DNA of 64,000 nt, taken from NCBI GenBank assembly GCA_964492195.1, contig CAZBJL010000002.1:25472-89471 (forward strand), in the 5' to 3' direction. The DNA is from an uncultured Candidatus Saccharibacteria bacterium (GTDB lineage Bacteria > Patescibacteriota > Minisyncoccia > Phycocordibacterales > DATGWK01). The notes beneath the pieces are model-generated. The model ran no database searches and had not been told where the DNA came from. It saw only the letters and a program-made list of their open reading frames with translations. A program made the translations under genes and the position numbers. Of this stretch, positions 574 to 46,797 are shown piece by piece; position 1 is the stretch's first letter, and every line of letters begins with the position of its first letter.

Positions 574-1506
574 ATGAAAATCTCCACAAAAAAAATTACA
601 CGAAGTCTCTTGATTGGCTTTTGTGCGTTTGTAATCCTCTCACTCCCTCTCGCTTTTACATTTGCACAAGAAATTAACTACGTCCCACTCGCACCATTGC
701 CGGGAATAGGTGACACAGGGCCCGTCACGAGCTTGTCTTCATACCTTGTCTCGGCATTCCGCCTCATTATTGGTCTTGCGGCATTGCTCGCTGTCGTCAT
801 GATCACGCTCGGAGGCATACAGTACATGTCTACTGACGCCATCAGCGGAAAAAGCGAAGGAAAGGAGAAAATAACAAATGCATTAATTGGTCTATTTCTC
901 GCCATCGGTTCTTGGCTCATTTTGTACACTGTGAACCCACGAACACTCGATTTCAACTTAAACATTTCACCGATTCAAACAGTTACCACCAACCCAACAA
1001 ACTCGGGAGTGATGCGAAAGTTTATTAAAGAAAGATTTTGTTTTCCTGAAGGCACAACGTCGATTGCTGAAGCACACGCAACACAATTTACAGAATTTCC
1101 TTATAGGGTATCTTCAGCTACAGAAAAAAATGAGGCTCGTGTTGCGTGTGCACAATCTTTCCCAGCCAACATGAGTCAAGGCCCGGCAACAAGTAATTGT
1201 CCTGGGGCCTCACAAGAAGCGGTGTACTGCACTGATGTAGAAATCACCGCGAATAGTTCCGGCCCCACAATACAACACGCATGGGTAAAGAAACTTATCT
1301 GCCACCCTACAGCAGGCAACACAGAAACCACAACAGAAGTCAGCGGGGGACGTTTTCCGTACGAAACAGGGAATGCAAACGCGAGAACTGACGCTATGGA
1401 CATGTGTACAGCTGCAAACCCAACCGTTCGCTCTGACACACCGCCCGATCACTGTGGCAACACCGCACGATCAGAAACAATCCAATGTTTTGATGAAACT
1501 ATTTAG
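574..1506 (+). CDS. TrbC/VirB2-like pilin-like membrane protein with Cys-rich C-terminal domain
   Basis: Signal-like N-terminus, two hydrophobic helices separated by a short loop (LIIGLAALLAVVMITLGG...LIGLFLAIGSWLILY), then a 180-aa Cys-rich extracellular region; architecture typical of T4SS pilin-like proteins in small-genome bacteria. Confidence 0.4.
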   Translation: MKISTKKITRSLLIGFCAFVILSLPLAFTFAQEINYVPLAPLPGIGDTGPVTSLSSYLVSAFRLIIGLAALLAVVMITLGGIQYMSTDAISGKSEGKEKITNALIGLFLAIGSWLILYTVNPRTLDFNLNISPIQTVTTNPTNSGVMRKFIKERFCFPEGTTSIAEAHATQFTEFPYRVSSATEKNEARVACAQSFPANMSQGPATSNCPGASQEAVYCTDVEITANSSGPTIQHAWVKKLICHPTAGNTETTTEVSGGRFPYETGNANARTDAMDMCTAANPTVRSDTPPDHCGNTARSETIQCFDETI

Positions 1507-4385: not shown

Positions 4386-5771
4386 ATGTCTACTGAAAAC
4401 AAAAAAATTTGGGATAACGTTCTGGTTGAAATGGAACTTTCTGTTTCAAAGCCCAATTTTACGACCTGGTTTCGAGACACTTCTATTTTTAAAGTCGAAG
4501 ATGGGGTAGCGTTCATCAGCGTTCCCAATAATTTCGTCAAAGACTGGCTCTACAAAAAATACCACTCAACAATTCTCAAGATTTTACGCACTGCGGCACC
4601 CACCGTTCGCTCTCTTGAGTATTCCGTAAGCCGAAGTGATGCCAAAAAGCGCAGCCCAGCCGAAGATCGTCCTTCTACAACCTCGTTAATCAACAACGAG
4701 CTTCCTCTAAGCGATTTTTACATAAACAAAGAGGACAATCTCAACCCTCGCTATGGTTTTGACTCATTTATCGTCGGGCCGTTCAACGAACTTGCATACG
4801 CAGCTGCCCAAGCTGTCGTAAAAAAGCCAGGTATCGTCTACAATCCGCTCTTTATATACGGAAACACTGGCCACGGCAAAACCCATCTCATCCAAGCAGT
4901 AGGGAATTACCTCAAACACATGTACCCAGAGATGCGAATTCACTACGTCACATCCGAAAAATTCGCGAGTGACTACGTGAGCTCCGTTCAATCCGCCCAA
5001 AGCAACCCAAACCACTCCAATAAAATAAGCAATTTTAAAGAAAAATACCGAAAATACGACGTTTTGATCATGGATGACATCCAATTCCTCTCAAAAACCG
5101 AGAAAACCCAAGAGGAATTGTTCCACCTGTTCAATCATCTCTACGACAACAACAAACAAATCGTCTTTTCATCCGACAAACACCCAAATTACATTCCCAA
5201 TCTCGAGGATCGCCTTCGTTCTCGCTTCGCGGCCGGCATGATTGTCGATATTCCTGCCCCAGACCACGAGTCGAGAATTGCAATTCTCAAAGCAAAGCTC
5301 CGAAACCAGGAATTAATCCTTTCAGATGAGATCATAGACTTCGTTGCAGCGTCAGTTTCTACAAACATCCGCGAACTTGAAGGAGTTTTGAACGCTGTCA
5401 TCTGCCAGGCACAGCTTAAAGGAAGAGAACTAACCCTCCAGGAAACAAAACTTCTCCTCAAAAACAGTGCGCGACCAGCAAAAAGAACCCTTTCTACCAA
5501 AGAAGTCATTAAAATCGTCGCTGATTTCTACAACATTGAAGAATCAAGTATTTATGAAAAAACCCGAAAGAAAGAAGTTATCCGTCCTCGCCAAATGACG
5601 ATGTATATCCTCCGAGAAGATTTCAAAATCTCATACCCGTCGATCGGGGAGAGACTTGGCGGACGCGACCACACCACTGTTATTCACTCATGCGAGAAGG
5701 TAAAAGGCGACCTCAAGGTCGACCCAACTCTTGGTCAGGAATTGAATCAGATTCGAGCTCTTATCACATAA
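4386..5771 (+). CDS. dnaA: chromosomal replication initiator DnaA
   Basis: Walker A GNTGHGKTHL, AAA+ box, C-terminal DnaA-box-binding HTH (HTTVIHSCEKV). Confidence 0.95.
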   Translation: MSTENKKIWDNVLVEMELSVSKPNFTTWFRDTSIFKVEDGVAFISVPNNFVKDWLYKKYHSTILKILRTAAPTVRSLEYSVSRSDAKKRSPAEDRPSTTSLINNELPLSDFYINKEDNLNPRYGFDSFIVGPFNELAYAAAQAVVKKPGIVYNPLFIYGNTGHGKTHLIQAVGNYLKHMYPEMRIHYVTSEKFASDYVSSVQSAQSNPNHSNKISNFKEKYRKYDVLIMDDIQFLSKTEKTQEELFHLFNHLYDNNKQIVFSSDKHPNYIPNLEDRLRSRFAAGMIVDIPAPDHESRIAILKAKLRNQELILSDEIIDFVAASVSTNIRELEGVLNAVICQAQLKGRELTLQETKLLLKNSARPAKRTLSTKEVIKIVADFYNIEESSIYEKTRKKEVIRPRQMTMYILREDFKISYPSIGERLGGRDHTTVIHSCEKVKGDLKVDPTLGQELNQIRALIT

Positions 5772-6024
5772 GCTGGGGATAAGGTATTGATAAGCTTTGG
5801 AATAGTTGTGAGAAAGCCTGTAGATATCTGGAAATTTCTCTAAACAAGGTGTGGATAAAAAAGCATCGAATCCCCAGATTTCAAATTCACCCACATACAG
5901 TTATATTTAATTCACACACGATGGGGACAAGAATTCACAAAAAACCCTTGAATTTAAAGAGAATTAAGCACTTATCAAGATATCCCCAGTCATAGTAATA
6001 GTAGTAGTATTTATATATAGATAT
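5762..6024. promoter_or_regulatory. putative oriC (DnaA boxes + AT-rich unwinding element) in the dnaA-dnaN intergenic region
   Basis: Perfect DnaA box tgtggataa at 5850..5858, 8/9 box tggggataa at about 5764, further degenerate boxes, AT-rich run 5988..6024 (atagtaatagtagtagtatttatatatagatat). Confidence 0.6.
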
Positions 6025-7128
6025 ATGAAGACCGAATGTGTAAAAGAAAAGTTAACAGCGGCGGTAGCACAAGCTGAAAAAATTACCGGGAAGAATTTAT
6101 CTCTTGCTGTTCTTGGTTGTGTATTTCTTGAAGCAGGAAAAAATACACTTTCGATTAAATCTACAAATCTCGATCTTGGTATTGAAATAACAATTCCAAC
6201 TAAAACCGAAAAGGAAGGGAAGGTGGCAGTGCCCGGGAATATTTTATCTGGTTTCCTTAACAACTCTCCGTACGAAAAAAATATAACCCTTGAAACCACA
6301 GACACAGGTCTTCTTAAAATCACTACAGAAAAAACTTCCACAACTATTAAATCCGTAAGTCCTGATGATTTTCCTTCTATTCCACAGGTTTCAGACGAAC
6401 AATCTTTTAAAATTAAAGGATCAGACTTTGTACGCGGTTTAAAGTCGGTCTGGTATAGCTCTTCGGTCTCAAGTATCAAACCCGAACTATCGAGCGTCCT
6501 GGTGCGTTGTGACGACGATACGCTTGTGTGTGCGGCCACAGACTCCTTCCGTCTTGCCGAGAAGAAAGTAAAACTTAAAGATCAAAAACCTTTCGACAGT
6601 ATTTTGATTCCCTTTAAAAACGTTCAAGAAATCATTCGAGTACTCGATGCTTCAGAGGAGGATGTTCTCTTTTGTGTGACTAAAAACCAAATTTCTATTT
6701 CTTACGACGGTGTGTATCTCACATCTCGCGTTATCGACGGTGTTTTTCCCGATTATCACCAGATTATTCCAAAGGAAAACCAAACAGAAGTTATTGTTCT
6801 TAAAGACGATCTCATTCAAGCCTTCAAAATCGCTAATATTTTCTCCGATAAATTTAATCAGGTGAATATGAAAGCTGAACCGTCAAAGAAAACATTTGAA
6901 ATTAAAACAAATAATGCAGATTTGGGTGAAAGTGTGAATAAAATCGATGCAACATTTAAAGGTGATGACGTTGCGGTGAATTTTAATCACAAATACGTTA
7001 CTGATTGTTTTGGTTCGTTGAGCGGCGACAGTCTTTCTTTGTCTTTTAACGGTTTAAGTCGTCCGCTTGTGATTCGTGGAGTAGGTGATCCATCATTCTT
7101 ATACCTCGTGATGCCAATGAATCGATAA
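6025..7128 (+). CDS. dnaN: DNA polymerase III beta sliding clamp
   Basis: 367 aa, three-domain clamp pattern; directly downstream of dnaA/oriC. Confidence 0.9.
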   Translation: MKTECVKEKLTAAVAQAEKITGKNLSLAVLGCVFLEAGKNTLSIKSTNLDLGIEITIPTKTEKEGKVAVPGNILSGFLNNSPYEKNITLETTDTGLLKITTEKTSTTIKSVSPDDFPSIPQVSDEQSFKIKGSDFVRGLKSVWYSSSVSSIKPELSSVLVRCDDDTLVCAATDSFRLAEKKVKLKDQKPFDSILIPFKNVQEIIRVLDASEEDVLFCVTKNQISISYDGVYLTSRVIDGVFPDYHQIIPKENQTEVIVLKDDLIQAFKIANIFSDKFNQVNMKAEPSKKTFEIKTNNADLGESVNKIDATFKGDDVAVNFNHKYVTDCFGSLSGDSLSLSFNGLSRPLVIRGVGDPSFLYLVMPMNR

Positions 7129-22392: not shown

Positions 22393-22473
22393 TTACTAAA
22401 TTTTTAATAGTAGTTTTTACCTCGTGTCGTCACGGATAATTTCCTCGCCGACGCCCTGGATTTTTCTTGCTTG

Positions 22474-22546
22474 TCCGCCCAGCAGGATTCGAACCTGCGA
22501 CCAAGTGCTTAAAAGGCACCTGCTCTACCAACTGAGCTATAGGCGG
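22474..22546 (-). tRNA. tRNA-Lys (anticodon TTT)
   Basis: Hand-folded cloverleaf: acceptor CCGCCTA/TGGGCGG, D arm GCTCAGTTGGTAGAGC, anticodon loop CTTTTAA, T arm GCAGGTTCGAATCCTGC. Confidence 0.75.
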
Positions 22547-22580: not shown

Positions 22581-22605
22581 ACTACCAAAACAGCTATAGG
22601 CGGAT
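22581..22605 (-). pseudogene. partial tRNA copy (5' acceptor + D-arm-like fragment)
   Basis: aactaccaaaacagctataggcggat matches 21/24 nt to the tRNA-Lys 5' third located 35 nt away; no T arm follows. Confidence 0.4.
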
Positions 22606-28002: not shown

Positions 28003-28169
28003 TAGCGTCCAATGAGATCGAGCATTTGTCCGGCCATGGTGACCCAGATGATGTGGGCTGCAGCTGCACCAACGATAAAGCCAGTTAATGAAGAGGCGAC
28101 AGTTCGGCCGATTTTCATCGGATACTCTCTCTGTTCTGTGGAAACGAAATCTCTAAAAATTTTTTTCAT
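28003..28169 (-). CDS. small hydrophobic protein (55 aa), hypothetical
   Basis: Hand-translated MKKIFRDFVSTEQREYPMKIGRTVASSLTGFIVGAAAAHIIWVTMAGQMLDLIGR; not in ORF track. Confidence 0.2.
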
Positions 28170-28226
28170 ATGTTATGTATAGCTGATAAATACTTTAGGT
28201 ATTATACATCATAACATTTAGCTACT

Positions 28227-28241
28227 ATATGCCCTCGGTAG
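28227..28241 (-). repeat. 14/15-nt copy of tRNA-Arg 3' end (atgccctcggtaggc)
   Basis: Matches atgccctcggcagga at the 3' end of tRNA-Arg 55 nt away; intervening segment holds two short palindromes. Confidence 0.4.
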
Positions 28242-28297
28242 GCCGCGAGTACGCGGTCGACCCTTACAGGGTCAGTACCCATGTCTCTCACAATCTA

Positions 28298-28369
28298 TGC
28301 CCTCGGCAGGAATCGAACCTGCATTTTGAGTTCCGCAAACTCATGTTCTATCCATTGAACTACGAGGAC
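28298..28369 (-). tRNA. tRNA-Arg (anticodon read as GCG)
   Basis: Hand-folded: acceptor GTCCTCG/CGAGGGC, D arm GTTCAATGGATAGAAC, perfect anticodon stem TGAGT/ACTCA with loop TTGCGGA, T arm CAGGTTCGATTCCTG; anticodon assignment not software-checked. Confidence 0.6.
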
Positions 28370-28429: not shown

Positions 28430-28891
28430 TCAAAAACCAAGATGTTCCATGATGAGCTCGAGAAGTGGCTCGCTTTGCTCGTATTCTGTTATTTTGGTTT
28501 TGAGGAATACACGAAGCTCTTCTTTCTCAATTTCTGAAAGACCGTCGACAGGAATAATGACGTGCGGCATGAAAAATCGCTTTGTTTTGATGAGAAGGCG
28601 AGGGTGTTCGTGGTGTTCGAGCCAAAAAGATTCAAGGTTTGCGTACGAAAAAAGATATTTGCTGATTTTAATTCCGGCGTCACTGATTTCAATATCGTTT
28701 TCGTCTGGCAAACGAGCGGCGTACATCAAAAGAGAGAAGGAGGCGAGGAGAATAAGGATCGCAAGGAGAATGTTGCCAAAAATTATCGCTGTGGCTGCTG
28801 ATGCAATCGTAATGATGCCGACAGTCCAGTACCAATCAGCACTTTTATGTCGATGATGATACTCGACAGCTTTAAAACGGAACGAAGTCAT
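28430..28891 (-). CDS. hypothetical membrane protein
   Basis: Two TM helices then soluble domain; start chosen at MTSFRF. Confidence 0.4.
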   Translation of the reverse strand: MTSFRFKAVEYHHRHKSADWYWTVGIITIASAATAIIFGNILLAILILLASFSLLMYAARLPDENDIEISDAGIKISKYLFSYANLESFWLEHHEHPRLLIKTKRFFMPHVIIPVDGLSEIEKEELRVFLKTKITEYEQSEPLLELIMEHLGF

Positions 28892-28954
28892 TCGTAAATT
28901 GTAGCACACGAGAAAAAAGCGAAAGATGTCTCACTAACACACCGTACGATTTAA

Positions 28955-32373: not shown

Positions 32374-32376
32374 TTA

Positions 32377-32405
32377 TAAAAAGAGCGACCGTCGTCGCTC
32401 TTTTA
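32377..32405 (+). terminator. rho-independent terminator after nirK-like gene
   Basis: aaaaagagcgaccgtcgtcgctcttttaaa. Confidence 0.5.
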
Positions 32406-32582
32406 AATGTGCGGGAGTGGTTAGATGCGTTTAGAACTGTTAATTGGAAGGAAATAAGGCATGAACTCCAGTTTAGTGGAATTTTGGGTTTTATACCATT
32501 ACTCCCAGATGTCGCAGTCTAATTTTCCGAAGCAGGGACTTTTCTTTTATTCTAGAAGTTAAATCCAAAAAAATGTAAGCTG

Positions 32583-33320
32583 TTGCCTATGCTAGCTTTT
32601 ATCGACGAAACCGGAGACCACAACTTAACTGTAATTGATACACAGTATCCTATATTTGGACTCGGAGTCCTTCTGATTTCTGAAAATGAATATTTGAAAA
32701 TGGATGCTGAAGTAAATTCTCTCAAAAAAAAGTTTTTTGCAGACGACGGAACCTTTATTCTGCATTCATCAGAGCTCAAGCGACCAGTTGATAAAAGGTC
32801 AGATGAACGGAACCTTTGTATGTTAAAGCCAGAAACTCGTACCTTGTTCTATAACGAGTTTGATGAACGAATCATAAAATCCTTAGATTTCAAAATTGTC
32901 ACCTGTTTTATTTTGAAAAAAAGAATGGTTGATAGATACGTGTATCCGGTAGACCCGTACTATCTTTCGTATGAAAACTTGCTTAACAGAATTATAAGAC
33001 ACGGTGGTCAAATGAACACGATGTATGTAGAAAAAAGGGGGCCTGAGCTTGATACTGAGTTGTTGTCGGAACACGAAAGATTAACAAAAACAGGCATCCA
33101 CTCTTTCTCAGCCGAGTCTGTATCTACCAAAACCAGTCTTAACCTGGTGAGTAAAAATAAAAACATGAACGGATTACAGGTTATCGACCTCGTCCTTTCT
33201 TCTTTAACTCGCGCTGGGTTGGGGAAAAAAGACAAAATGATTGGCAATGACCTTAATCCTGAATTTCTTAAAATAAAATACGCTTGCCCTGCGACAGTTT
33301 TCCCCAAAAAACGCATGTGA
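32583..33320 (+). CDS. DUF3800-family protein
   Basis: N-terminal LAFIDETGDHN (DUF3800 ..iDESG.. signature) and HSSELKR (cf. E.HAsE motif); 245 aa. Confidence 0.5.
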   Translation: MPMLAFIDETGDHNLTVIDTQYPIFGLGVLLISENEYLKMDAEVNSLKKKFFADDGTFILHSSELKRPVDKRSDERNLCMLKPETRTLFYNEFDERIIKSLDFKIVTCFILKKRMVDRYVYPVDPYYLSYENLLNRIIRHGGQMNTMYVEKRGPELDTELLSEHERLTKTGIHSFSAESVSTKTSLNLVSKNKNMNGLQVIDLVLSSLTRAGLGKKDKMIGNDLNPEFLKIKYACPATVFPKKRM

Positions 33321-33533
33321 TTTAGTACAAAAGCAAAGGGACCCCCCGCTAGGCAGTGAGTCCCTTATGCGCTCTCAGTCTACTCTATTTAGGGTCATTT
33401 TTCAACAAAAAAGACATTTCGAAACTGGGTATCAAAGCTTAGAAAATAAGTACCATTTCAAGTCTATTTTAAGCCATTTTCTACTGAGTTATTGCGAAGG
33501 AGGTTTTATTCTCACTGTAAACTAATGTAAGGT

Positions 33534-34733
33534 GTGGGAGAAAATATGACCGAGCGCAATAAACGAAAACAGGACTATTTACCGGAGGCAGATTTGTACA
33601 TACTCTGGCTTTTGTGCGATGCGAATAAAATGTTCAGAAAATCAAGAATAGTTTTCGGCGACCTCACAGCTCTTGGCTCAAGCGAAATGCTTTCGGTCGT
33701 TATCACCAAGAATCTTTCTCGTGCCTTCGGCTTTGAACTTAAAGATTTTGAACTCGTGCGAGGTAAGTACGCTTTCGATGGTTTTTGTGCTGACAAATAT
33801 GAGAAAAATAAAGAATTTTGCGAAAAGCATCCCGACAGCACAATGGCAAAAGCGTTAGCCAAAATACATGAAGGCGATTTTGATTTTGAAGATGTGGAGA
33901 AGGCGAATTTTCGTCTGAATGGATACTTGGAGTTCATTGAATTTTCTCCTCAGATTTCAAAAAAATCTAAAAAAACAATTTTGGACTTCATGTCGCGTTA
34001 CCTTACTGACTATGTGAACGACGGGCTCAGGCCAGAGAAAGAAAATTTCTACGAGTTCAACAAACAACTCCTTTTTACATACGGATTACTGAAGAAATAC
34101 ATCGACCAGTACGGGAATAGTTTTGTTTTTGAAATAGCCCAACTCACGGTGAAACCGAACGAGTTTCCCGAGCAAAAAGAAAGCCCTTACCTGCCGGTTC
34201 ACAACCTGCTTGCCCTGGAAGCAATGAAGTTTATCGAGATAGACCAGGTTTGGATTTCTGATTGGGAAGTGAATCCTGAAGAAGAGCGGGGTACTTACAA
34301 GGTACGAGTGAAAATAAATCAGGCAATGATTGATTTCTTTGGCGATTTTGACCCAAAAATCACTTACGATTTTGGTGAAAAAACGAAAGACGACTCTGCT
34401 GTAAAAACTGATGATGCTGATGCGAAACTAGAATTTGACGGTGTCACTAGAACGCTGTTTTTTGCCAACACGTCAATTCTTATCTCGAAGCAGTCAGAGA
34501 GTGACCCGTGCAAGCTAATGAAAACTCTTTTCAAGGATAAAAATAAGGTTTGGGCTAATGATGAAATATTGGAAGACTGGGGCTACTCTTTTGACGATGA
34601 AACATCGAAAAACAAGGTCTATCAGGCAGGCAAGGCCGTCAACCGGATTGTGGCTCAGGATACGAAAATAAAAGATTTCCTTGATGTTAGTACAAAATCA
34701 GTATCGATAAACAAAAAATATTTGAAGACCTAA
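33534..34733 (+). CDS. hypothetical protein (399 aa)
   Basis: SD-like aaggaggt upstream; acidic, no recognised motif; followed by hairpin + T7. Confidence 0.4.
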   Translation: MGENMTERNKRKQDYLPEADLYILWLLCDANKMFRKSRIVFGDLTALGSSEMLSVVITKNLSRAFGFELKDFELVRGKYAFDGFCADKYEKNKEFCEKHPDSTMAKALAKIHEGDFDFEDVEKANFRLNGYLEFIEFSPQISKKSKKTILDFMSRYLTDYVNDGLRPEKENFYEFNKQLLFTYGLLKKYIDQYGNSFVFEIAQLTVKPNEFPEQKESPYLPVHNLLALEAMKFIEIDQVWISDWEVNPEEERGTYKVRVKINQAMIDFFGDFDPKITYDFGEKTKDDSAVKTDDADAKLEFDGVTRTLFFANTSILISKQSESDPCKLMKTLFKDKNKVWANDEILEDWGYSFDDETSKNKVYQAGKAVNRIVAQDTKIKDFLDVSTKSVSINKKYLKT

Positions 34734-34769
34734 AAAGTTTACAAACTTTTGTAAACGAGCATACGAATA

Positions 34770-34798
34770 ACCTGAGGGCACACCCTAACAGGTTTTTT
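34770..34798 (+). terminator. rho-independent terminator
   Basis: cctgagggcacaccctaacagg + ttttttt. Confidence 0.45.
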
Positions 34799-34984
34799 TA
34801 TGTCCGACGAAAATATTATCAACGAAGAATCAAAACCGGACTGGTCGTTAAAAGAACTTGGCGAAACAGAGCGAAATAATTTACTCGGTTTTTTCGCTCT
34901 GGGTTTTAAGGTCGATAGAAGGGTAAATCCACATTTGTACAAAAAAACAGATGAGCGCTACGGAAGCTTAGAGTAAAAATAGCC

Positions 34985-36100
34985 ATGTTGGACACTGTCG
35001 TTCTAAACGTGCCGAGAGGGTCGTATAAGCTCAGACCCGAAGCGTTTACGCCAAACGCAATCATTCTCAGGATGTCTGGGAATTATCTAGTGAAGTGCGT
35101 CAATAATCCGAGTGCCGCCGACAAGAAAGCCGGAATCTATAGGCCACGTTTGACCTTAATGAAAAGGATGACACGAAACGGTAGCGAAATACCGCTTAAA
35201 ATCGAGTTCTCTGTGGCAAAGATGCTTTATGGAAATAATGTTGACGAGGTGGAAGAAATCGACTTTGAAAAAGTTATTTCGGCACTACATGAAGCAATGA
35301 TTGAAATGCAGGTCTATGTGTCGCACGAGAATTTAAGAAATGCCAAAGTGTCGGCTTTTCATCCGTCAAAAAACGTTAGGCTTACAGACGGGTACACTTC
35401 AAGCTTCGTGATTACTGAACTCCGTAAGGTTGATGTCAGTAAGAAAATGGACATTAACCGTGACAGCTTCAGGAATAGTGGACATTCGCTCCAGTTCTAC
35501 ACAAACTCCCATTCGCTTGTTGTGTACGACAAAGTTTACGACCTTAAAAAACCCGAGAAACGAGCTATGGATAAAAACCAGAACTCACTTCAACTTTCTC
35601 TCTTCGACACACTAACGAAGAAGAAAAAGACAGAGGTCTTGCGTATTGAAGCTCGACTCGCAAAAAAAGTTAAAATGAATGCGATTTTGAGAGGGCTGGG
35701 ACTCAAGGAAAATCCAACTTTTGCAGATGTTTTTAAGAAGAATGTTTGTCAGAAAATACTTCTCAATTACTGGGATGAAATCATTGTGGGTAAAAATCTT
35801 TTCTTGTTCGATGTTGAGAGCAATCCGAAGAAAACCCTTGATTCCATTTTCAAAAATAAGCCCAAAATAAAACCAAAAGACGCTCTGTACCTCGTGGGTC
35901 TCAGGGTTCTCAGTAAGGGTGGAATCAGAGACACGAGGTCGGTTGTCGAGCGGTATTCGACACCTCGAACTTGGTATCGGATAGCAAAAGATTTGAAGTT
36001 TCTCGACGACATTTCAAGTAAGACCTACCACGGTTGGGTAAGACAAATAAAAGATGCGCTCGATGATTTCGTACCATTCCGAATATCCACGGCCGAATGA
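34985..36100 (+). CDS. hypothetical protein (371 aa), possible replication/mobilisation function
   Basis: Basic, Lys-rich; located in recombinase-associated cluster; no catalytic motif securely recognised. Confidence 0.4.
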   Translation: MLDTVVLNVPRGSYKLRPEAFTPNAIILRMSGNYLVKCVNNPSAADKKAGIYRPRLTLMKRMTRNGSEIPLKIEFSVAKMLYGNNVDEVEEIDFEKVISALHEAMIEMQVYVSHENLRNAKVSAFHPSKNVRLTDGYTSSFVITELRKVDVSKKMDINRDSFRNSGHSLQFYTNSHSLVVYDKVYDLKKPEKRAMDKNQNSLQLSLFDTLTKKKKTEVLRIEARLAKKVKMNAILRGLGLKENPTFADVFKKNVCQKILLNYWDEIIVGKNLFLFDVESNPKKTLDSIFKNKPKIKPKDALYLVGLRVLSKGGIRDTRSVVERYSTPRTWYRIAKDLKFLDDISSKTYHGWVRQIKDALDDFVPFRISTAE

Positions 36101-36131
36101 TTGGCTTGTAAAGAATTGTAAAGTATAATTA

Positions 36132-36329
36132 TTGACATCAAAACATAAAACCATGAAAGAAAAAGACTTTTACACAGCAAAAGATTTAGCGGAAAAACTG
36201 GGACTGAACGTGATGACCATTTATCGTTACATCGACTCCAAGAAACTTGGAGCATATAAAATCGGCAAGGAATATCGGATAGAGAAAGTCGAGTTTGAGG
36301 CGTTTTTGAAAAAGGTAAGCACTAAATAA
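36132..36329 (+). CDS. excisionase-family helix-turn-helix DNA-binding protein
   Basis: 65 aa; FYTAKDLAEKLGLNVMTIYRYIDSKKLGAYKIGKEYRI matches the excisionase/MerR-like HTH_17 pattern. Confidence 0.6.
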   Translation: MTSKHKTMKEKDFYTAKDLAEKLGLNVMTIYRYIDSKKLGAYKIGKEYRIEKVEFEAFLKKVSTK

Positions 36330-36330
36330 A

Positions 36331-39300
36331 ATGGCCGGATTATTCAAAAATAAAATCATAAAAGGAAAGATTGAACGGTTTGAAATACCCGATTTTGACC
36401 AGAAGCTCTCGGTAGTTAAATCCTGGTCTGATGCCTACAATGCAGGGGAACTTCAAAAGAAAAATGAGACCCAGTGCGAGCAGGCTTTCAATCAAGATTT
36501 TTTCATAAACATCCTTGGCTACTCGGCTTTTCCAAAAGAAAACTACACTATTCAGCCTAAAGACAATGTGGAAAGTGGAGGCGGTCAGATGCCTGACGCA
36601 ACGCTCGGCTATTTCGGCAAAGAGGGAAAGCGTGTTGTGGCCGTCGTTGAAATAAAAGACGCCAATACATCTCTTGATAAGTCGCAGTATCGGGAAGGTA
36701 GCCTGAGTCCAATCCAGCAGGCTTTCAAATACAAACCTCAATTCAAGGAGTGTGGTTTTGTTATAGCTACGAACTTTTTTGAACTCCGATTATTCCGAGA
36801 TAATCAACTCGATTACGAAAAATTTACACTCACGGAGCTAATCGACCCAAAAGATAATTATTACAATTTTCGCAAATTCTTTTTTCTCCTGAATGTTCAG
36901 AATTTTGTAACGGAAAAGGGGCAGACAGAAACCGAAATGCTTCTTTCGGCTATTCGTGTTGAGCAAGAAAAAATTACGAACCGGTTTTATGCGCAGTATA
37001 AGGAACTCCGTGAAAGTCTAATTACCGACATCGTAGAAAACAATAAAGACATTAAGCGGCCGGACTTTTATGGTTATATCGTTGAAAAGGCGCAGAAAAT
37101 TGTAGACCGAATAGTGTTCATATGTTTCTTCGAGGACTCCGGATTGTTGCCAGAGAATAAATTGGTCGAGGTTGTTGAGTATTCGCAAAAAAGCCAGTTG
37201 AGCGAACCGATTTGGGAAACCCTAAAAAAGTTCTTTAAGGCTGTAGATGAGGGAAGTGACCGGTTGGGAGTGCCGAACGGATATAACGGTGAACTTTTTA
37301 AGCAGGACAATGACCTTGATAGGCTGAAGGTAAGCGACTCAATTTGCAAACGCTTCATCGAACTTACGAATTTTGATTTTCAGGAAGACCTCTCGGTTAA
37401 CATTCTTGGTCACATTTTTGAGCAATCTATTACCGACCTTGAGAGACTGAAACAGTATTCAGAAGCAAGCACAATCACTGTCAGTAAAAAGGACACAAAG
37501 CGTAAAAAGGATGGAATTTTTTATACACCGGAGTATGTTGTTGATTACATTGTTAAAAACTCGTTGGGTAAATTCTTGTTTGAAAAAGAGACCGAAATTT
37601 TACAGAAGTTTAATCTTGACGACAAAAGGGTAAAAGAAGCTGGCTACAATAAAAAATTGGCACAAGCGTACTCGGAGTACAGTCAGTTTTTGAGAGGCGT
37701 GAAAATTCTTGACCCCGCTTGTGGCTCCGGAGCTTTTTTGGTAAAAGTGTTCGATTACTTACTTGCCGAACATAAAAGAGTTTTCAAGGTCGTTAATGAA
37801 GCGGAGGGACTAGACGGCAATAGCGCGTTACTTTCTGAAGAGAGTTACATAAAGCCGATTTTGGAAAACAATATTTTCGGTGTAGACCTTAACCCTGAGA
37901 GCGTCGAAATAACCAAGCTTTCGCTATGGCTCAAGTCGGCTCAAAAAGGTCAGAAGCTTATTACGCTCAAAGGAAATATAAAATGTGGCAACAGTTTGAT
38001 TGATGATTCGCAGATTGCAGGTGAACGAGCTTTCAATTGGTCTGCCGAGTTTCCATCAGTTATGAATGAAGGGGGCTTTGATGTTGTCGTTGGTAATCCT
38101 CCATATGTATTTGCCCGCGGTGGTAATTTCAATGAAAAAGAAAAGGAATACTATTACGGAAAATATAAGCTCGCAAACTATCAGATAAATACCTTCCTTC
38201 TTTTTATCGAGTTATCCAGGGGTTTGTTAAAGAAAAATGGTGAACTCGGTTTCATTATCCCGAACAACTGGCTCACGATAAGTTCCTTCGCGCCATTGAG
38301 AGAATTTATCATCAAAGAAAATGGCGATGTTCACATCTACAATGCGGTAGATAAAATATTCAACCAAGCCAGTGTAGATACTTGTTTGTTGTTTTTGAAA
38401 AAAGCTGAACCAACTACTGTCGTTCTTGGCGAACTTACAGCAGAAGAGGTAACGGTCGTGTCTGAGTCAAAACCCGAAGCATTTTTTGGCAACGATTTTA
38501 TATTGAGAATTGCTCACAAAGACAAGGTAGCAATAAAGTTTAAAAATTGTATTTCTTTGAAAGAAATTGCAACCGTAAAATCAGGGCTGAAAGCTTACGA
38601 GGTTGGAAAAGGTATCCCACAGCAGACGAAAGAAATGAAAGACACTCGAGTTTATCATTCGACGACATCTAATGGCGTGGATTGGCTTAAATACCTAGAG
38701 GGAGCAGATGTTGTCCGTTATCATCTTGGTTGGTCTGGCGAATATATCAAATATGGTCATAACCTAGCGGCTCAAAGGAGTTTGGAGCTATTTAATAGCC
38801 CAAGAATTGTGGTTCGCCAGATACCCTCGCGGCCGCCTTACTGCATAAATGCAATTTATTCAAAAGACATATATATAAACGACATCAATAGCCACAATAT
38901 TCTAAATATAAAAAGTGATTACCCTTATTTATACGTTCTTGGTGTTATCAATTCGGCGTTGCTGTCTCACTGGTTTGTAAATACCTTTGATAAATTCCAG
39001 AGAAAGATTTTTCCTCAATTTAAGGTTAATGAGCTTGAGCAATTTCCAATCGCAGAGGCGACGGATAAGGACAAAAATTCACTAGAGGTTCTTGTTGGAA
39101 ATACAATTTTGGCTAATGACGAGTTCTACTCAAAACTTAACAAGAGCAAAGAGCTTTTACGCATTGAGCTTAGTCTTGAAAAATTACCGACAAAACTCAA
39201 TCATTTCTATGAATTTTCATTTGACGAAGTGCTCAAGATTTCAAAAGCATCATTGAGTTTGGATAAAAAATCAGAACTCATGGATTTCTTCACAAAACAA

Positions 39301-39432
39301 AAAGACGAACTAAAAAATCTTAACGGTCGAATCGTTGCTTTAGACCAAGAGATTGACGAGCTTGTCTATAAGGTCTATGGGCTTTTAGCCGACGAAATCA
39401 AGGTTGTAGAAGACTTCAAAAAGAACAAATGA
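36331..39432 (+). CDS. Type IIG restriction-modification enzyme (MmeI-like fused endonuclease / N6-adenine methyltransferase)
   Basis: N-terminal PD-ExK (PDATLGYF...VVAVVEIKD), gamma-class MTase motif I LDPACGSGAFL and motif IV VVGNPPYV, long C-terminal TRD; 1033 aa. Confidence 0.65.
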   Translation: MAGLFKNKIIKGKIERFEIPDFDQKLSVVKSWSDAYNAGELQKKNETQCEQAFNQDFFINILGYSAFPKENYTIQPKDNVESGGGQMPDATLGYFGKEGKRVVAVVEIKDANTSLDKSQYREGSLSPIQQAFKYKPQFKECGFVIATNFFELRLFRDNQLDYEKFTLTELIDPKDNYYNFRKFFFLLNVQNFVTEKGQTETEMLLSAIRVEQEKITNRFYAQYKELRESLITDIVENNKDIKRPDFYGYIVEKAQKIVDRIVFICFFEDSGLLPENKLVEVVEYSQKSQLSEPIWETLKKFFKAVDEGSDRLGVPNGYNGELFKQDNDLDRLKVSDSICKRFIELTNFDFQEDLSVNILGHIFEQSITDLERLKQYSEASTITVSKKDTKRKKDGIFYTPEYVVDYIVKNSLGKFLFEKETEILQKFNLDDKRVKEAGYNKKLAQAYSEYSQFLRGVKILDPACGSGAFLVKVFDYLLAEHKRVFKVVNEAEGLDGNSALLSEESYIKPILENNIFGVDLNPESVEITKLSLWLKSAQKGQKLITLKGNIKCGNSLIDDSQIAGERAFNWSAEFPSVMNEGGFDVVVGNPPYVFARGGNFNEKEKEYYYGKYKLANYQINTFLLFIELSRGLLKKNGELGFIIPNNWLTISSFAPLREFIIKENGDVHIYNAVDKIFNQASVDTCLLFLKKAEPTTVVLGELTAEEVTVVSESKPEAFFGNDFILRIAHKDKVAIKFKNCISLKEIATVKSGLKAYEVGKGIPQQTKEMKDTRVYHSTTSNGVDWLKYLEGADVVRYHLGWSGEYIKYGHNLAAQRSLELFNSPRIVVRQIPSRPPYCINAIYSKDIYINDINSHNILNIKSDYPYLYVLGVINSALLSHWFVNTFDKFQRKIFPQFKVNELEQFPIAEATDKDKNSLEVLVGNTILANDEFYSKLNKSKELLRIELSLEKLPTKLNHFYEFSFDEVLKISKASLSLDKKSELMDFFTKQKDELKNLNGRIVALDQEIDELVYKVYGLLADEIKVVEDFKKNK

Positions 39433-40901
39433 AAGCCATAATCCTCGCCAGAGTTTCGGATAAAAAACAGGACTCAAACGAGGCTCAACTTTCACGAATA
39501 CTTTCGTATGCCAAGAGTAAGAATTTAGAAAAATGGAAAGTTTTTGAGCTAGAGGAGTCGTCCACTAAAGGTGTTAGAAAAAAGTTTCAGGAAATAATCG
39601 ACATCATCCGAGCATCCAAAGAGATAATCGCGCTTGTTGTTGATACGGTAGACCGACTGCAAAGGAGTTTTCAGGAATCGGTTGTTTTCGACGAACTTCG
39701 CAGAGAAGGAAAGGTAGAAATACATTTTTTTAGAGAAAATTTAATCATCAACAAAAAATCGAATAGCGCAGACATTCTTCGTTGGGATATGGGCGTCATG
39801 TTCGCCAAAAGCTACGTGTTGCAACTCAGCGACAACGTCAAAAGGAAGCAGGACAAAATGCGAGAAGATGGAGATATAACCGGAGCGCCGCCAATCGGCT
39901 ACGAGAGTGTATATAACGAAGCAGAAAAGAAGAGAAGAATCGATGTTATTCCAGACGAAAAAGCACACTACATCGTTAAAATTTTTGAAGAATACGCAAA
40001 GGGTGACGTGTCAGTAAAAACACTTTCAGAACGGATGTATAACGTCGGCTTGAGGAGCAAGACTGGCGTGAAGGTTAATCACGCAATGATTTTCAAAATT
40101 TTGAACGACACTTTCTATCACGGTGAAGCTTATTCGCGTACGCACAAACTCAGGTATCGTCACAAGTTCAAGTCAATAATCACAAAGGAACTTTTTGATA
40201 GATGTCAGGCTGTGATGGCGAAACACAATAAAGTACCGACAAAATATGCCTCGATGCCCTTTATGTTCGGAGGAGGCTCTGTTACGTGCGCACATTGTGG
40301 CGGTACTGTCGGGGGACAACTTAAAAAGGGTAAATACGTCTATTACAGTTGTTCTGGGTACAAGAAGTGTAAGAGGGTATACGTAACCGAAGAAGAGCTT
40401 GTGGGGCAGGTATACGGCGTTCTAGACAACCTGGAGCTACCTGATGACAGGATTGAAGAAATCACTGCCGGTCTAAAGGAAATCGGCGAGAACGAGAACA
40501 AATTTTATCGAACCAATATAACCGGCCTCAGGGCGGAATATGACAAGTACGATGCAAGAATAAAGAAAATGTACGAAGACCGGCTCGACGGACGTATTAC
40601 GGAAGATTTGTATGACAGTTATTTAAGAGAGTACAAAGAAAAACAGGCTGAACTCTTGAGTCAGATGCAAGACCACTCGAGCGCTGACGAACAATTCTAT
40701 ATAACCGCGAATATGACTTTGAATATAGCCCAAAGAGCCAAAGAGATATTCTTGAGTTCTGAACCCGAGGAGAAAAGGCAATTTTTGGGTTTTCTACTTC
40801 AGAACTGTACCCTAGACGAGAAAAAGCTATATTTCTCCCTACGTTCACCCTTTAATTTCATATCGGATTACACCGATAATACTACGTTGCGGAGGAGGTG
40901 A
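39429..40901 (+). CDS. large serine recombinase (integrase)
   Basis: Resolvase catalytic domain with Ser in AIILARVSDKKQ, recombinase domain, Cys4 zinc ribbon (CAHCGG...YYSCSGYKKCK), coiled-coil tail; last 12 nt overlap tRNA-Ser 3' end. Confidence 0.8.
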   Translation: MKAIILARVSDKKQDSNEAQLSRILSYAKSKNLEKWKVFELEESSTKGVRKKFQEIIDIIRASKEIIALVVDTVDRLQRSFQESVVFDELRREGKVEIHFFRENLIINKKSNSADILRWDMGVMFAKSYVLQLSDNVKRKQDKMREDGDITGAPPIGYESVYNEAEKKRRIDVIPDEKAHYIVKIFEEYAKGDVSVKTLSERMYNVGLRSKTGVKVNHAMIFKILNDTFYHGEAYSRTHKLRYRHKFKSIITKELFDRCQAVMAKHNKVPTKYASMPFMFGGGSVTCAHCGGTVGGQLKKGKYVYYSCSGYKKCKRVYVTEEELVGQVYGVLDNLELPDDRIEEITAGLKEIGENENKFYRTNITGLRAEYDKYDARIKKMYEDRLDGRITEDLYDSYLREYKEKQAELLSQMQDHSSADEQFYITANMTLNIAQRAKEIFLSSEPEEKRQFLGFLLQNCTLDEKKLYFSLRSPFNFISDYTDNTTLRRR

Positions 40902-40975
40902 GATTCGAACTCACGGTCCCTTGCGAGACTCTCGTTTTCAAGACGAGCGCGTTAGACCACTCTGCCACTCCTCCA
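40890..40975 (-). tRNA. tRNA-Ser (anticodon TGA)
   Basis: Hand-folded: acceptor GGAGGAG/CTCCTCC, anticodon stem CTCGT/ACGAG loop CTTGAAA, long variable arm, T arm GTGAGTTCGAATCTCAC. Confidence 0.8.
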
Positions 40976-44287: not shown

Positions 44288-44359
44288 GTCCTCGTAGCTC
44301 AACGGATAGAGCAGTGCTCTTCTAAGGCATTGATGTAGGTTCGATTCCTACCGAGGGCA
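44288..44359 (+). tRNA. tRNA-Arg (anticodon TCT)
   Basis: Hand-folded: acceptor GTCCTCG/CGAGGGC, D arm GCTCAACGGATAGAGC, anticodon loop CTTCTAA (stem has two G-U pairs), T arm GTAGGTTCGATTCCTAC. Confidence 0.65.
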
Positions 44360-44365
44360 GAGAAT

Positions 44366-45157
44366 TTGCGTATAAATTGTTATGAGATGGAATTAGACGG
44401 CCCTATTTTAGACAAAATTAAAATCTCTTTTTCAGATAACGTGGATTTTTCGGAGTATCCATTTTCTCTGGACATCGTTAGAAATTTGAAAGATATCGTT
44501 TTTTCGTCACAAGTTACTTTTTTTATTGGTGAAAACGGAACGGGTAAATCAACCATTTTGGAAGCAATAGCGAGTAAGTCGGGATTTGGCAGAGAAGGAG
44601 GAAGTAAGAACATAAATTTTAACACCGCAGATAATTCCTTTTATTCCGAAATTCAAAAGTTGTCGGATTGCATGACGTTGTCCTGGAGGAAGAAAACAAA
44701 AGACGGGTATTTTTTTAGAGCAGAAAGTTTTTTTAATCTCGCAAATCACATCGATCATCTTGAGAAAGAAGGAGGTCAGCGCGCCGGGGTCGCATATTCT
44801 CCCTATGGTGGGAAGTCGTTACATAAACAATCTCACGGCGAGAGTTTTTTCTCTTTTTTCAAAAATAGGTTAGGTGGCGGAGGGTTTTATATTCTTGATG
44901 AACCAGAAGCAGCTCTTTCTCCGCAACGTCAACTTGCTCTACTGATCATAATAAATGATTTGTGTAAAAATCCTGAAACACAATTTCTTATAGCTACTCA
45001 TTCTCCGATATTGCTTGCGTTTCCGAATTCAACTATTTATTCATGTGATGGAAGTGCATTAGAGAAAATCGACTATAAAAAAACTGATCATTACGAAATA
45101 ACCAAAGGGTTTCTCAATAATCCGGAGCAATACTTAAAACGTTTATTGCGGGATTAG
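44366..45157 (+). CDS. AAA/ABC-type ATPase (AAA_21-like), orphan
   Basis: Walker A GENGTGKSTIL, Walker B FYILDEPEAALS, H-loop LIATHSP; 263 aa; no nuclease partner in cis. Confidence 0.6.
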   Translation: MRINCYEMELDGPILDKIKISFSDNVDFSEYPFSLDIVRNLKDIVFSSQVTFFIGENGTGKSTILEAIASKSGFGREGGSKNINFNTADNSFYSEIQKLSDCMTLSWRKKTKDGYFFRAESFFNLANHIDHLEKEGGQRAGVAYSPYGGKSLHKQSHGESFFSFFKNRLGGGGFYILDEPEAALSPQRQLALLIIINDLCKNPETQFLIATHSPILLAFPNSTIYSCDGSALEKIDYKKTDHYEITKGFLNNPEQYLKRLLRD

Positions 45158-46702: not shown

Positions 46703-46785
46703 GCGCAGGTGGCGAAATTGGTAGACGCACTACCTTGAGGTGGTAACGCCCATCGGGCATGGAGGTTCAAGTCCTCTCCTGCGCA
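46703..46785 (+). tRNA. tRNA-Leu (anticodon GAG)
   Basis: 83 nt, acceptor GCGCAGG/CCTGCGC, anticodon loop TTGAGGT, long variable arm, T arm GGAGGTTCAAGTCCTCT. Confidence 0.75.
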
Positions 46786-46797
46786 CTGGTTTTTTAT

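Follow-up and report, generated by a model that had tools for sequence, protein, structure and literature searches.

A partial downstream copy of the tRNA-Arg(GCG) 3' end in a Candidatus Saccharibacteria genome: an att-type remnant as the favoured reading, set apart from a serine-recombinase island at tRNA-Ser(TGA)

When the 3' end of a tRNA gene recurs a short distance downstream of the gene, the question is whether mobile DNA once joined the chromosome there and, if so, what was left behind. Such a repeat follows tRNA-Arg(GCG) in the window analysed here, a 64,000-nucleotide stretch of DNA from an uncultured Candidatus Saccharibacteria bacterium. The original prediction, made from the letters alone, had taken the repeat as an attL/attR signature, either a scar left by excision or a minimal att-site remnant, and had placed it at the border of a GC-heterogeneous 12-kb stretch reaching to tRNA-Ser. 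What is this repeat, and what does it bound?

The tRNA-Arg(GCG) gene lies on the minus strand at 28298-28369 and forms a complete cloverleaf without an encoded CCA. It is one of seven tRNA genes found in the window by ARAGORN, which reads the same anticodon as the original prediction had, and Rfam RF00005 matches it over its full length with 67.6 bits. On the tRNA strand the gene terminates in ...GCAGGTTCGATTCCTGCCGAGGGCA and is followed by TA. The proximal repeat copy (CCTGCCGAGGGCA plus TA; 28296-28310, minus strand) consists of tRNA nt 61-73, that is, the 3' strand of the T-stem, the 3' strand of the acceptor stem and the discriminator, together with two trailer bases. The distal copy (CCTACCGAGGGCA plus TA; 28228-28242, minus strand) matches it at 14 of 15 positions. 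Read on the plus strand, TATGCCCTCGGCAGG (28296-28310) reappears in the same orientation as TATGCCCTCGGTAGG (28228-28242); read on the tRNA strand, the 15-mer CCTGCCGAGGGCATA (28310-28296) is repeated as CCTACCGAGGGCATA (28242-28228). The copies are separated by 53 nt and lie 68 nt apart start to start, and the positions and the spacing of 55 nt that had been predicted were right to within 2 nt. Neither copy carries the CCA trailer seen in the related locus L001. The arrangement is also found in an independent Logan assembly of the same organism (L086), in which the 3' part of the tRNA, the spacer and the distal copy are all identical to those in the window. As an observation on the tRNA itself, the anticodon of the CGN-decoding tRNA-Arg is GCG both here and at each of the 84 related loci. 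The usual bacterial anticodon for this tRNA is ACG, normally deaminated to ICG; the GCG anticodon hints that the clade does without reliance on TadA-type editing of A34.

The short length of the repeat is the one property that would favour a chance match, and coincidence is extremely improbable. By simple arithmetic, a 15-mer with at most one mismatch is expected within 300 nt downstream with a frequency of about 1e-5, and shuffled sequence yields 0.45 matches per whole window even when 3 mismatches are allowed. Moreover, about 10% of the related tRNA loci show the pattern, on the downstream side each time, and the 14/15 repeat that had been predicted is thus real and far beyond chance. Elsewhere in the 64-kb window the 15-nt repeat has no match at one mismatch or fewer, and its sole match at two mismatches is the genuine 3' end of tRNA-Arg(TCT) (44347-44361; gene at 44288-44359). 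The last 13 nt of that gene are identical to the distal copy, whose 13 tRNA-derived bases are also the 3' end of many related tRNA-Arg(GCG) genes. Directly after tRNA-Arg(TCT) comes an ORF for an AAA_21/AbiEii-like ATPase (44366-45157), perhaps one more small insertion of accessory or defence DNA at the 3' end of a tRNA.

Since the tRNA is encoded on the minus strand, the distal copy and whatever it bounds face away from the interval at 28.4-40.9 kb. Both the tRNA's 3' end and the copy are directed to lower coordinates, where a conserved 55-aa membrane ORF (28005-28172, minus strand; TATAAT at 28201-28206), rpsT and ruvA lie; the 55-aa ORF represents the native flank beyond the distal copy. 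On the 5' side, a 159-aa gene (28430-28909, minus strand) adjoins tRNA-Arg(GCG) in all syntenic relatives, which means that no island has its edge at the tRNA there. The order 153-aa gene, tRNA-Arg(GCG), small ORF, rpsT, ruvA, mur ligase and fpg is conserved in eight syntenic loci. Protein look-up of the exact 55-aa ORF gave no match, and look-up of the window's own RuvA gave as its sole match an identical short contig. RuvA homologues assign the organism to Patescibacteria/Parcubacteria. The GC content does not set the 12-kb stretch apart as had been predicted: it is flat, at 0.38-0.46 over 28-41 kb versus 0.37-0.48 elsewhere in the window.

These observations bear on the idea that the two copies, or the tRNA, bound the 12-kb stretch up to tRNA-Ser as a single integrated island. 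The interval between the two tRNAs does vary in gene content among relatives, from about 1.9 to 12.5 kb, and it does include a recombinase. However, the repeat copy lies on the opposite side of the tRNA, the neighbouring gene at 28430-28909 is conserved core, the DUF1428 gene and the multicopper oxidase gene that lie between tRNA-Arg and the tRNA-Ser island are common to relatives, and the GC content is flat, while the recombinase belongs to an island that has ends of its own, 32411 and 40888, tied to tRNA-Ser. A single island is accordingly very unlikely, and the link that the original prediction drew between the repeat and the 12-kb stretch falls with it.

The accessory DNA of the 12-kb stretch is instead a separate 8.5-kb island (32411-40888) inserted by a large serine recombinase (LSR) at tRNA-Ser(TGA) (40889-40974). 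The 490-aa LSR (39429-40901, plus strand) is encoded at the tRNA-proximal end, and the last 13 nt of its gene lie inside the 3' end of tRNA-Ser. The island carries an MmeI-like type IIG restriction-modification enzyme (36331-39432), two hypothetical genes and a DUF3800 gene as cargo. At its far end is a conserved tRNA-Ser-like site of 32-40 nt (32411-32442), which defines the span of the island as 32411-40888. The site, ...YAACRGTTCTRAACGCATCTAACCAYYCCCGC, reads as the tRNA-Ser 3' end with a 7-nt insertion at the T-loop position and agrees with the window's own tRNA-Ser 3' end at 12 of 16 positions. Plain mismatch searches of this far end revealed no displaced copy of the tRNA-Ser 3' end, and the site was recognised solely through conserved element-borne sequence: it is kept across hosts, and host-specific terminators come after it, as does the native terminator at 32376-32405 in the window. 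Homologues of the LSR at 70-81% identity are common and overlap tRNA-Ser(TGA) exactly as in the window in every contig fetched; the layout of the island is repeated in L087-L094. Among the window ORFs tested this is the only recombinase, and none is a tyrosine integrase. The original prediction had pointed to integrase genes elsewhere that might pair with the tRNA-Arg repeat; the one recombinase among these ORFs sits in the tRNA-Ser island with that island's own ends.

The tRNA-Ser island also occurs in decayed form. In L006/L007, about 866 nt accommodate tRNA-Ser, the far-end site and a C-terminal fragment of the recombinase, 101 aa long (74% identity), which is direct evidence that such islands decay by internal deletion with both ends kept; this derivation by deletion is seen for the tRNA-Ser island and not at the tRNA-Arg locus. 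A second tRNA is used by a serine-recombinase element in the same relative: at 320-1144 of L006, an ORF with a recombinase zinc ribbon overlaps the 3' end of tRNA-His (1135-1206) by 10 nt. The equivalent of another tRNA gene of the window adjoins tRNA-His in L006. In the window this gene (46703-46786) is called by ARAGORN with an undetermined anticodon ('tg', tRNA-???) and is scored as a tRNA by Rfam with 49 bits; it may have an unusual anticodon loop. Among other landmarks, the window holds dnaA and dnaN (4386-7128) and a change in the sign of the GC skew near 3-7 kb, and thus spans the chromosomal replication origin region.

How often do tRNA end copies of this kind occur in related Patescibacteria? 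A degenerate tRNA-Arg(GCG) pattern yielded 72 metagenome loci that were added to 13 earlier ones; a scan of genome contigs with the exact tRNA gave 3 loci only. About a dozen of 83 tRNA-Arg(GCG) loci have a copy of the last 15 nt, with at most two mismatches, 41-181 nt downstream. When the last 14 nt of every tRNA were searched for within 400 nt with at most one mismatch, downstream copies were found at 11 of 126 distinct tRNA loci and upstream copies at none of the 126. Loci with downstream copies include tRNA-Ser(TGA) and tRNA-Lys(TTT). The copies in relatives begin at T-loop nt 56-59, compared with nt 61 in the window, run through the discriminator and sometimes into the trailer, and measure from 13 to about 27 nt; their variable length and their start in the T-loop or T-stem fit an att identity block rather than a fixed target-site duplication. 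At the other tRNA-Arg loci the copies track the sequence of the local host tRNA. Where native flanks can be recognised they come 3' of the distal copy, as with a terminator common to L008 and L004 and with the CCAGAC trailer common to L071 and L040.

The copy is a variable feature of the locus. In L001/L049, a tRNA identical to the window's tRNA-Arg(GCG) is followed by CCA and has no downstream copy, and the copy is likewise absent from the syntenic relatives L034, L004 and L006. The comparison of relatives to which the original prediction had pointed thus shows absence of the copy from L001/L049, with the polarity of the change, insertion versus loss, being decided by parsimony alone since DNA identity to the window locus reaches only about 75% even in the nearest relative.

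The DNA enclosed by tRNA end copies in relatives forms a continuum of sizes from 41 nt to 9.85 kb, with a small class of 41-181 nt at tRNA 3' ends. Intermediate inserts carry single genes: in L012 (tRNA-Ser at 6117-6204, minus strand) a small GIY-YIG nuclease ORF lies between copies at +154 and +534, 380 nt apart, and in L067 (tRNA-Arg(GCG) at 785-857, minus strand) a 654-nt insert between 22-nt copies holds a single 127-aa ORF with a signal peptide. At the upper end of the range, L093 has a 7.4-kb recombinase island at tRNA-Ser followed by an older module made of a conserved core plus a copy, and L084 has such a core-plus-copy module 9.85 kb downstream of tRNA-Ser, with methylases and regulators in the interval; in both inserts an LSR gene adjoins the tRNA. 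At tRNA-Arg(GCG) itself, a recombinase gene of the LSR class begins about 190 nt downstream of the tRNA in L019, where the far end of the element lies off the contig, and among the fetched loci no element of full size was seen between tRNA-Arg(GCG) copies. Units may also be stacked in arrays: L047 has a tandem run of three 56-nt units of identical sequence, L071 and L062 each have two units that differ, and L012 has one unit plus the GIY-YIG gene cassette. Inserts of 110-180 nt share a common layout made up of a hairpin resembling a terminator, a T-stem/T-loop piece in inverted orientation, a conserved core (GGAGCG ... GGGGTCGCGA ... long hairpin ... GTGAC) and the direct copy. Scans of viral contigs for this core and for the double-hairpin unit described below gave no matches. 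In the window, the trailer of tRNA-Lys (22425-22449, minus strand) contains GGCGAGGAAATTATCCGTGACGAC, which matches the 3' part of the conserved core found downstream of relatives' tRNAs and is 96% identical over 25 nt to the tRNA-Lys trailer of L008; no tRNA end copy comes after it.

What, then, lies between the two copies at tRNA-Arg(GCG)? The 53-nt spacer (28243-28295, minus strand) has no ORF of its own and no Rfam match, and no recombinase gene lies between the repeats. Both small palindromes that had been predicted are present, ccgcgagtacgcgg at 28243-28256 and gacccttacagggtc at 28259-28273. On the tRNA strand (minus) the latter forms hairpin 1 (GACCC-UGUAA-GGGUC) and the former hairpin 2 (CCGCG-UACU-CGCGG), which abuts the distal copy and has no U-run. 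The spacer sequence is unique within the window and among all fetched loci (640 kb of related loci), and exact searches gave no match in viral contigs (two patterns) or in metagenome contigs (one pattern). Covariance models of Rfam 15 matched the tRNA alone, both in the window region at E<=10 and in 11 related loci at gathering thresholds. The fold of the 70-nt unit is ordinary (z = -1.56), and on this ground the case for a structured RNA in the spacer was dropped; the z of -2.98 for tRNA plus trailer is mostly due to the tRNA itself. An intrinsic terminator of tRNA-Arg(GCG) was rejected after a scan of the minus strand over 28228-28297 found none; relatives have clear terminators at the position corresponding to the spacer. 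A MITE was rejected as well, there being neither an inverted T-loop piece nor a terminal inverted repeat, and the spacer having no dispersed copies. The 53-bp unit encodes nothing now and is probably inert DNA, at most co-transcribed as a tRNA trailer.

An origin without any mobile DNA would be a local duplication, in which the unit is a decayed tandem tRNA-Arg or a product of slippage or unequal crossover of the tRNA end and its trailer. The 68-nt period is near the length of a tRNA, the copy agrees with the tRNA-Arg(TCT) 3' end in all 13 of its tRNA-derived bases, and L047 shows that such units can be amplified in tandem. Yet the region at 28228-28297 has no RF00005 match at E<=10, and the 55 nt preceding the distal copy are no closer to two tRNA-Arg bodies than shuffled sequences are, 80% and 73% of which score equally well; a decayed tRNA or tRNA pseudogene was rejected on these grounds. 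The sequences that follow the proximal and the distal copy are, moreover, unlike each other, and the equivalent architecture at other tRNAs encloses genes and recombinases. We therefore regard local duplication as unlikely.

The two hairpins are harder to set aside, as they are the sole tandem pair of GC-rich hairpins in the whole window and such pairs are rare: 642 kb contain 13 sites, 9 of which lie within 150 nt of a tRNA. At Arg and Ser tRNAs of L047, L057 and L076, the sequence AGGTTC-hairpinA-hairpinB-GAWTCC is followed by a copy of the tRNA 3' end, the hairpin pair being placed exactly within the T-loop of the partial copy. Mirror-image pairs occupy the D-loop of partial copies of the tRNA 5' end and occur upstream of the gene, with 14 matches in 130 loci and none downstream. 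In the upstream units at tRNA-Arg(GCG), nt 1-13 are followed by a double GC hairpin about 30 nt long and then by CAATGGAT (L047 at about 4743-4890; also L028, L030, L033, L040/L078, L057 and L071), and in L047 the leader and the trailer are mutually complementary around the tRNA. The stems of the hairpins covary among related units (TCAGCC/GGCTGA, CCAGCC/GGCTGG, TGCGCC/GGCGCA). Random decay does not explain these regularities in the T-loop and D-loop of partial copies, and they thereby leave room for a more specific mini-element or a structural role. IS200/IS605-like insertion after GTTC and REP/RAYT were weighed for the hairpin units and neither fits all observations; nor do split or intron-bearing tRNAs, tRNA-primed reverse transcription or a casposon-like duplication. 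A partial 5' end copy is also present in the window at tRNA-Lys(TTT) (22473-22546): CCGCCTATAGCTGTTTTGGTAG, corresponding to the first ~22 nt of the gene with about 20 of 22 positions matching, starts 57 nt upstream (22582-22603, minus strand) and is kept in L006 and L008. This copy may be functional or an old scar.

It is conceivable, if doubtful, that the unit at tRNA-Arg(GCG) belongs to a small class of tRNA-flanking units of this kind, in which a partial tRNA end copy carries, in its T-loop or D-loop, a hairpin pair of about 30 nt. Such units would be pre-tRNA leader and trailer structures under selection or non-autonomous mini-elements mobilised in trans, and not random debris. The window's pair matches the family in size (31 nt) and in position, and the recurrence of the T-loop arrangement in three loci, the three identical tandem units in L047, the mirror-image units upstream and the covarying stems all speak for this reading. 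The window's hairpins, however, share no sequence with it, the flanking T-loop pieces GGTTC and GATTCC are absent, the covariation comes from related units, no known RNA family matches, and the fold is the ordinary one given above.

On balance, we lean towards reading the tRNA-Arg(GCG) unit as an att-type remnant or a mini-insert at the 3' end of the tRNA, in either case without a recombinase. A DNA segment would have entered the chromosome at the T-arm/3' end of tRNA-Arg(GCG) through site-specific recombination, as islands of the clade do; the tRNA would have been kept intact on the attL side, with a second tRNA-3'-like block left at the far end on the attR side, and the interior would later have shrunk to 53 bp, or the insert would have been tiny from the outset. 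We infer that the 53-bp unit arose by integration of this kind and that the recombinase was an LSR. After site-specific excision a clean attB is left with just one copy of the sequence, so that a remnant presupposes either internal deletion or a naturally tiny insert. The 'scar left by excision' of the original prediction does not survive this consideration, while its 'minimal att-site remnant' is a fair description given the absence of the copy in L001/L049 and the similarly bounded islands in L084, L093 and L006. Its attL/attR reading holds for the geometry, a block from the T-stem to the 3' end placed downstream in the same orientation, but not for any edge of the 12-kb region.

The att-remnant reading is supported by the non-randomness of the repeat and its strictly downstream asymmetry, by the continuum of insert sizes and the observed decay with both ends kept, and by the recombinase beside tRNA-Arg(GCG) in L019 together with the absence of the copy in L001/L049; comparable duplications recur in the clade beside full-size and decayed recombinase islands. 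What counts against it is that the 53 nt contain no recognisable recombinase or fragment of one, that tRNA-Arg(GCG) copies were nowhere seen to enclose a full-size element, that the spacer has no match in viral and metagenome contigs, that both copies are without the CCA trailer, and that the hairpins resemble the recurring double-hairpin unit, on which random decay would not obviously converge.

The repeat at tRNA-Arg(GCG) is ordinary in kind and of a sort common in this group of bacteria; it is att-like and variable. Two things that had been merged are now apart, an inert att-type remnant and a defined 8.5-kb LSR island at tRNA-Ser whose ends can be annotated precisely. With about one in ten sampled tRNA genes having end copies and inserts ranging from 41 nt to about 10 kb, it appears that mobile DNA in the reduced genomes of Patescibacteria lands chiefly at tRNA 3' ends, and serine rather than tyrosine recombinases seem to act there. 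A more speculative proposal, to which we would give perhaps one chance in a few, is that Patescibacteria harbour undescribed and widespread tRNA-anchored mini-cassettes, mobilised in trans by LSRs, or else pre-tRNA decoy or processing structures. If so, short structured units or single genes, bounded by a tRNA end copy and often containing a GC hairpin pair or a conserved core, would sit at the T-loop (3') or D-loop (5') of tRNAs and accumulate in arrays as an integron-like or SCC-like platform on tRNA genes, of which the window's 68-bp unit would be one member. For annotation, partial tRNA copies are liable to be miscalled. The pattern also helps to define attB/attP pairs of new LSRs, which are useful genome-engineering enzymes, and bears on how streamlined genomes gain and shed accessory genes.

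Among known systems, casposon-type insertion creates a fixed 14-15-bp target duplication, with terminal inverted repeats on the element and an integrase of the Cas1 family. The window resembles casposon and CRISPR-repeat insertion in that a tRNA 3' end is repeated over about 15 bp, and the clade in having tandem arrays that share repeats. Casposon-type insertion was nevertheless rejected: the repeats measure anything from 13 to 27 nt depending on the locus, the window's unit lacks terminal inverted repeats, and no Cas1 was found among the ORFs scanned. Closer to hand is the window's own tRNA-Ser island, which likewise uses a tRNA 3' end, has a tRNA-3'-like block at its far end and exists in a decayed version (L006). 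It differs in that its far-end block is element-borne, whereas the tRNA-Arg copies follow the host tRNA; the two recombinase families compared are only 27% identical, and no homology was found between the tRNA-Ser island and the tRNA-Arg spacer.

A T-loop sublocation class of tRNA integration sites was reportedly recognised by Williams in 2002. Partial tRNA duplications have been described as tRNA gene fragments left by integrating elements (bioRxiv 10.1101/2022.07.05.498093). Like the attL/attR duplications of this type, the copy in the window is downstream and in the same orientation, extends from the T-arm through the discriminator and leaves the tRNA intact. Unlike the duplications at islands and prophages, it is separated from the tRNA by just 53 bp, with no integrase and no cargo, and the recombinases seen at such tRNA sites in the clade are large serine recombinases, not tyrosine integrases. 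Serine recombinases are also at work in the ccrAB islands at the 3' end of rlmH, which have direct-repeat att sites and leave remnants without a recombinase (PMC6222049). The unit in the window differs from these SCC/ECC remnants in its target, a tRNA gene and not rlmH, and in its size, which falls below that of every remnant described by one to two orders of magnitude. As in remnants of SCCmec and of the Enterococcus cassette chromosome, however, both att-type repeats are kept and the recombinase is gone, and related genomes (L012, L047, L062 and L071) have tandem repeat-bounded units at the 3' end of one conserved gene, as SCC/ECC elements do at rlmH. Cis-mobilisable elements (CIMEs) offer a further parallel of recombinase-less units bounded by att sites.
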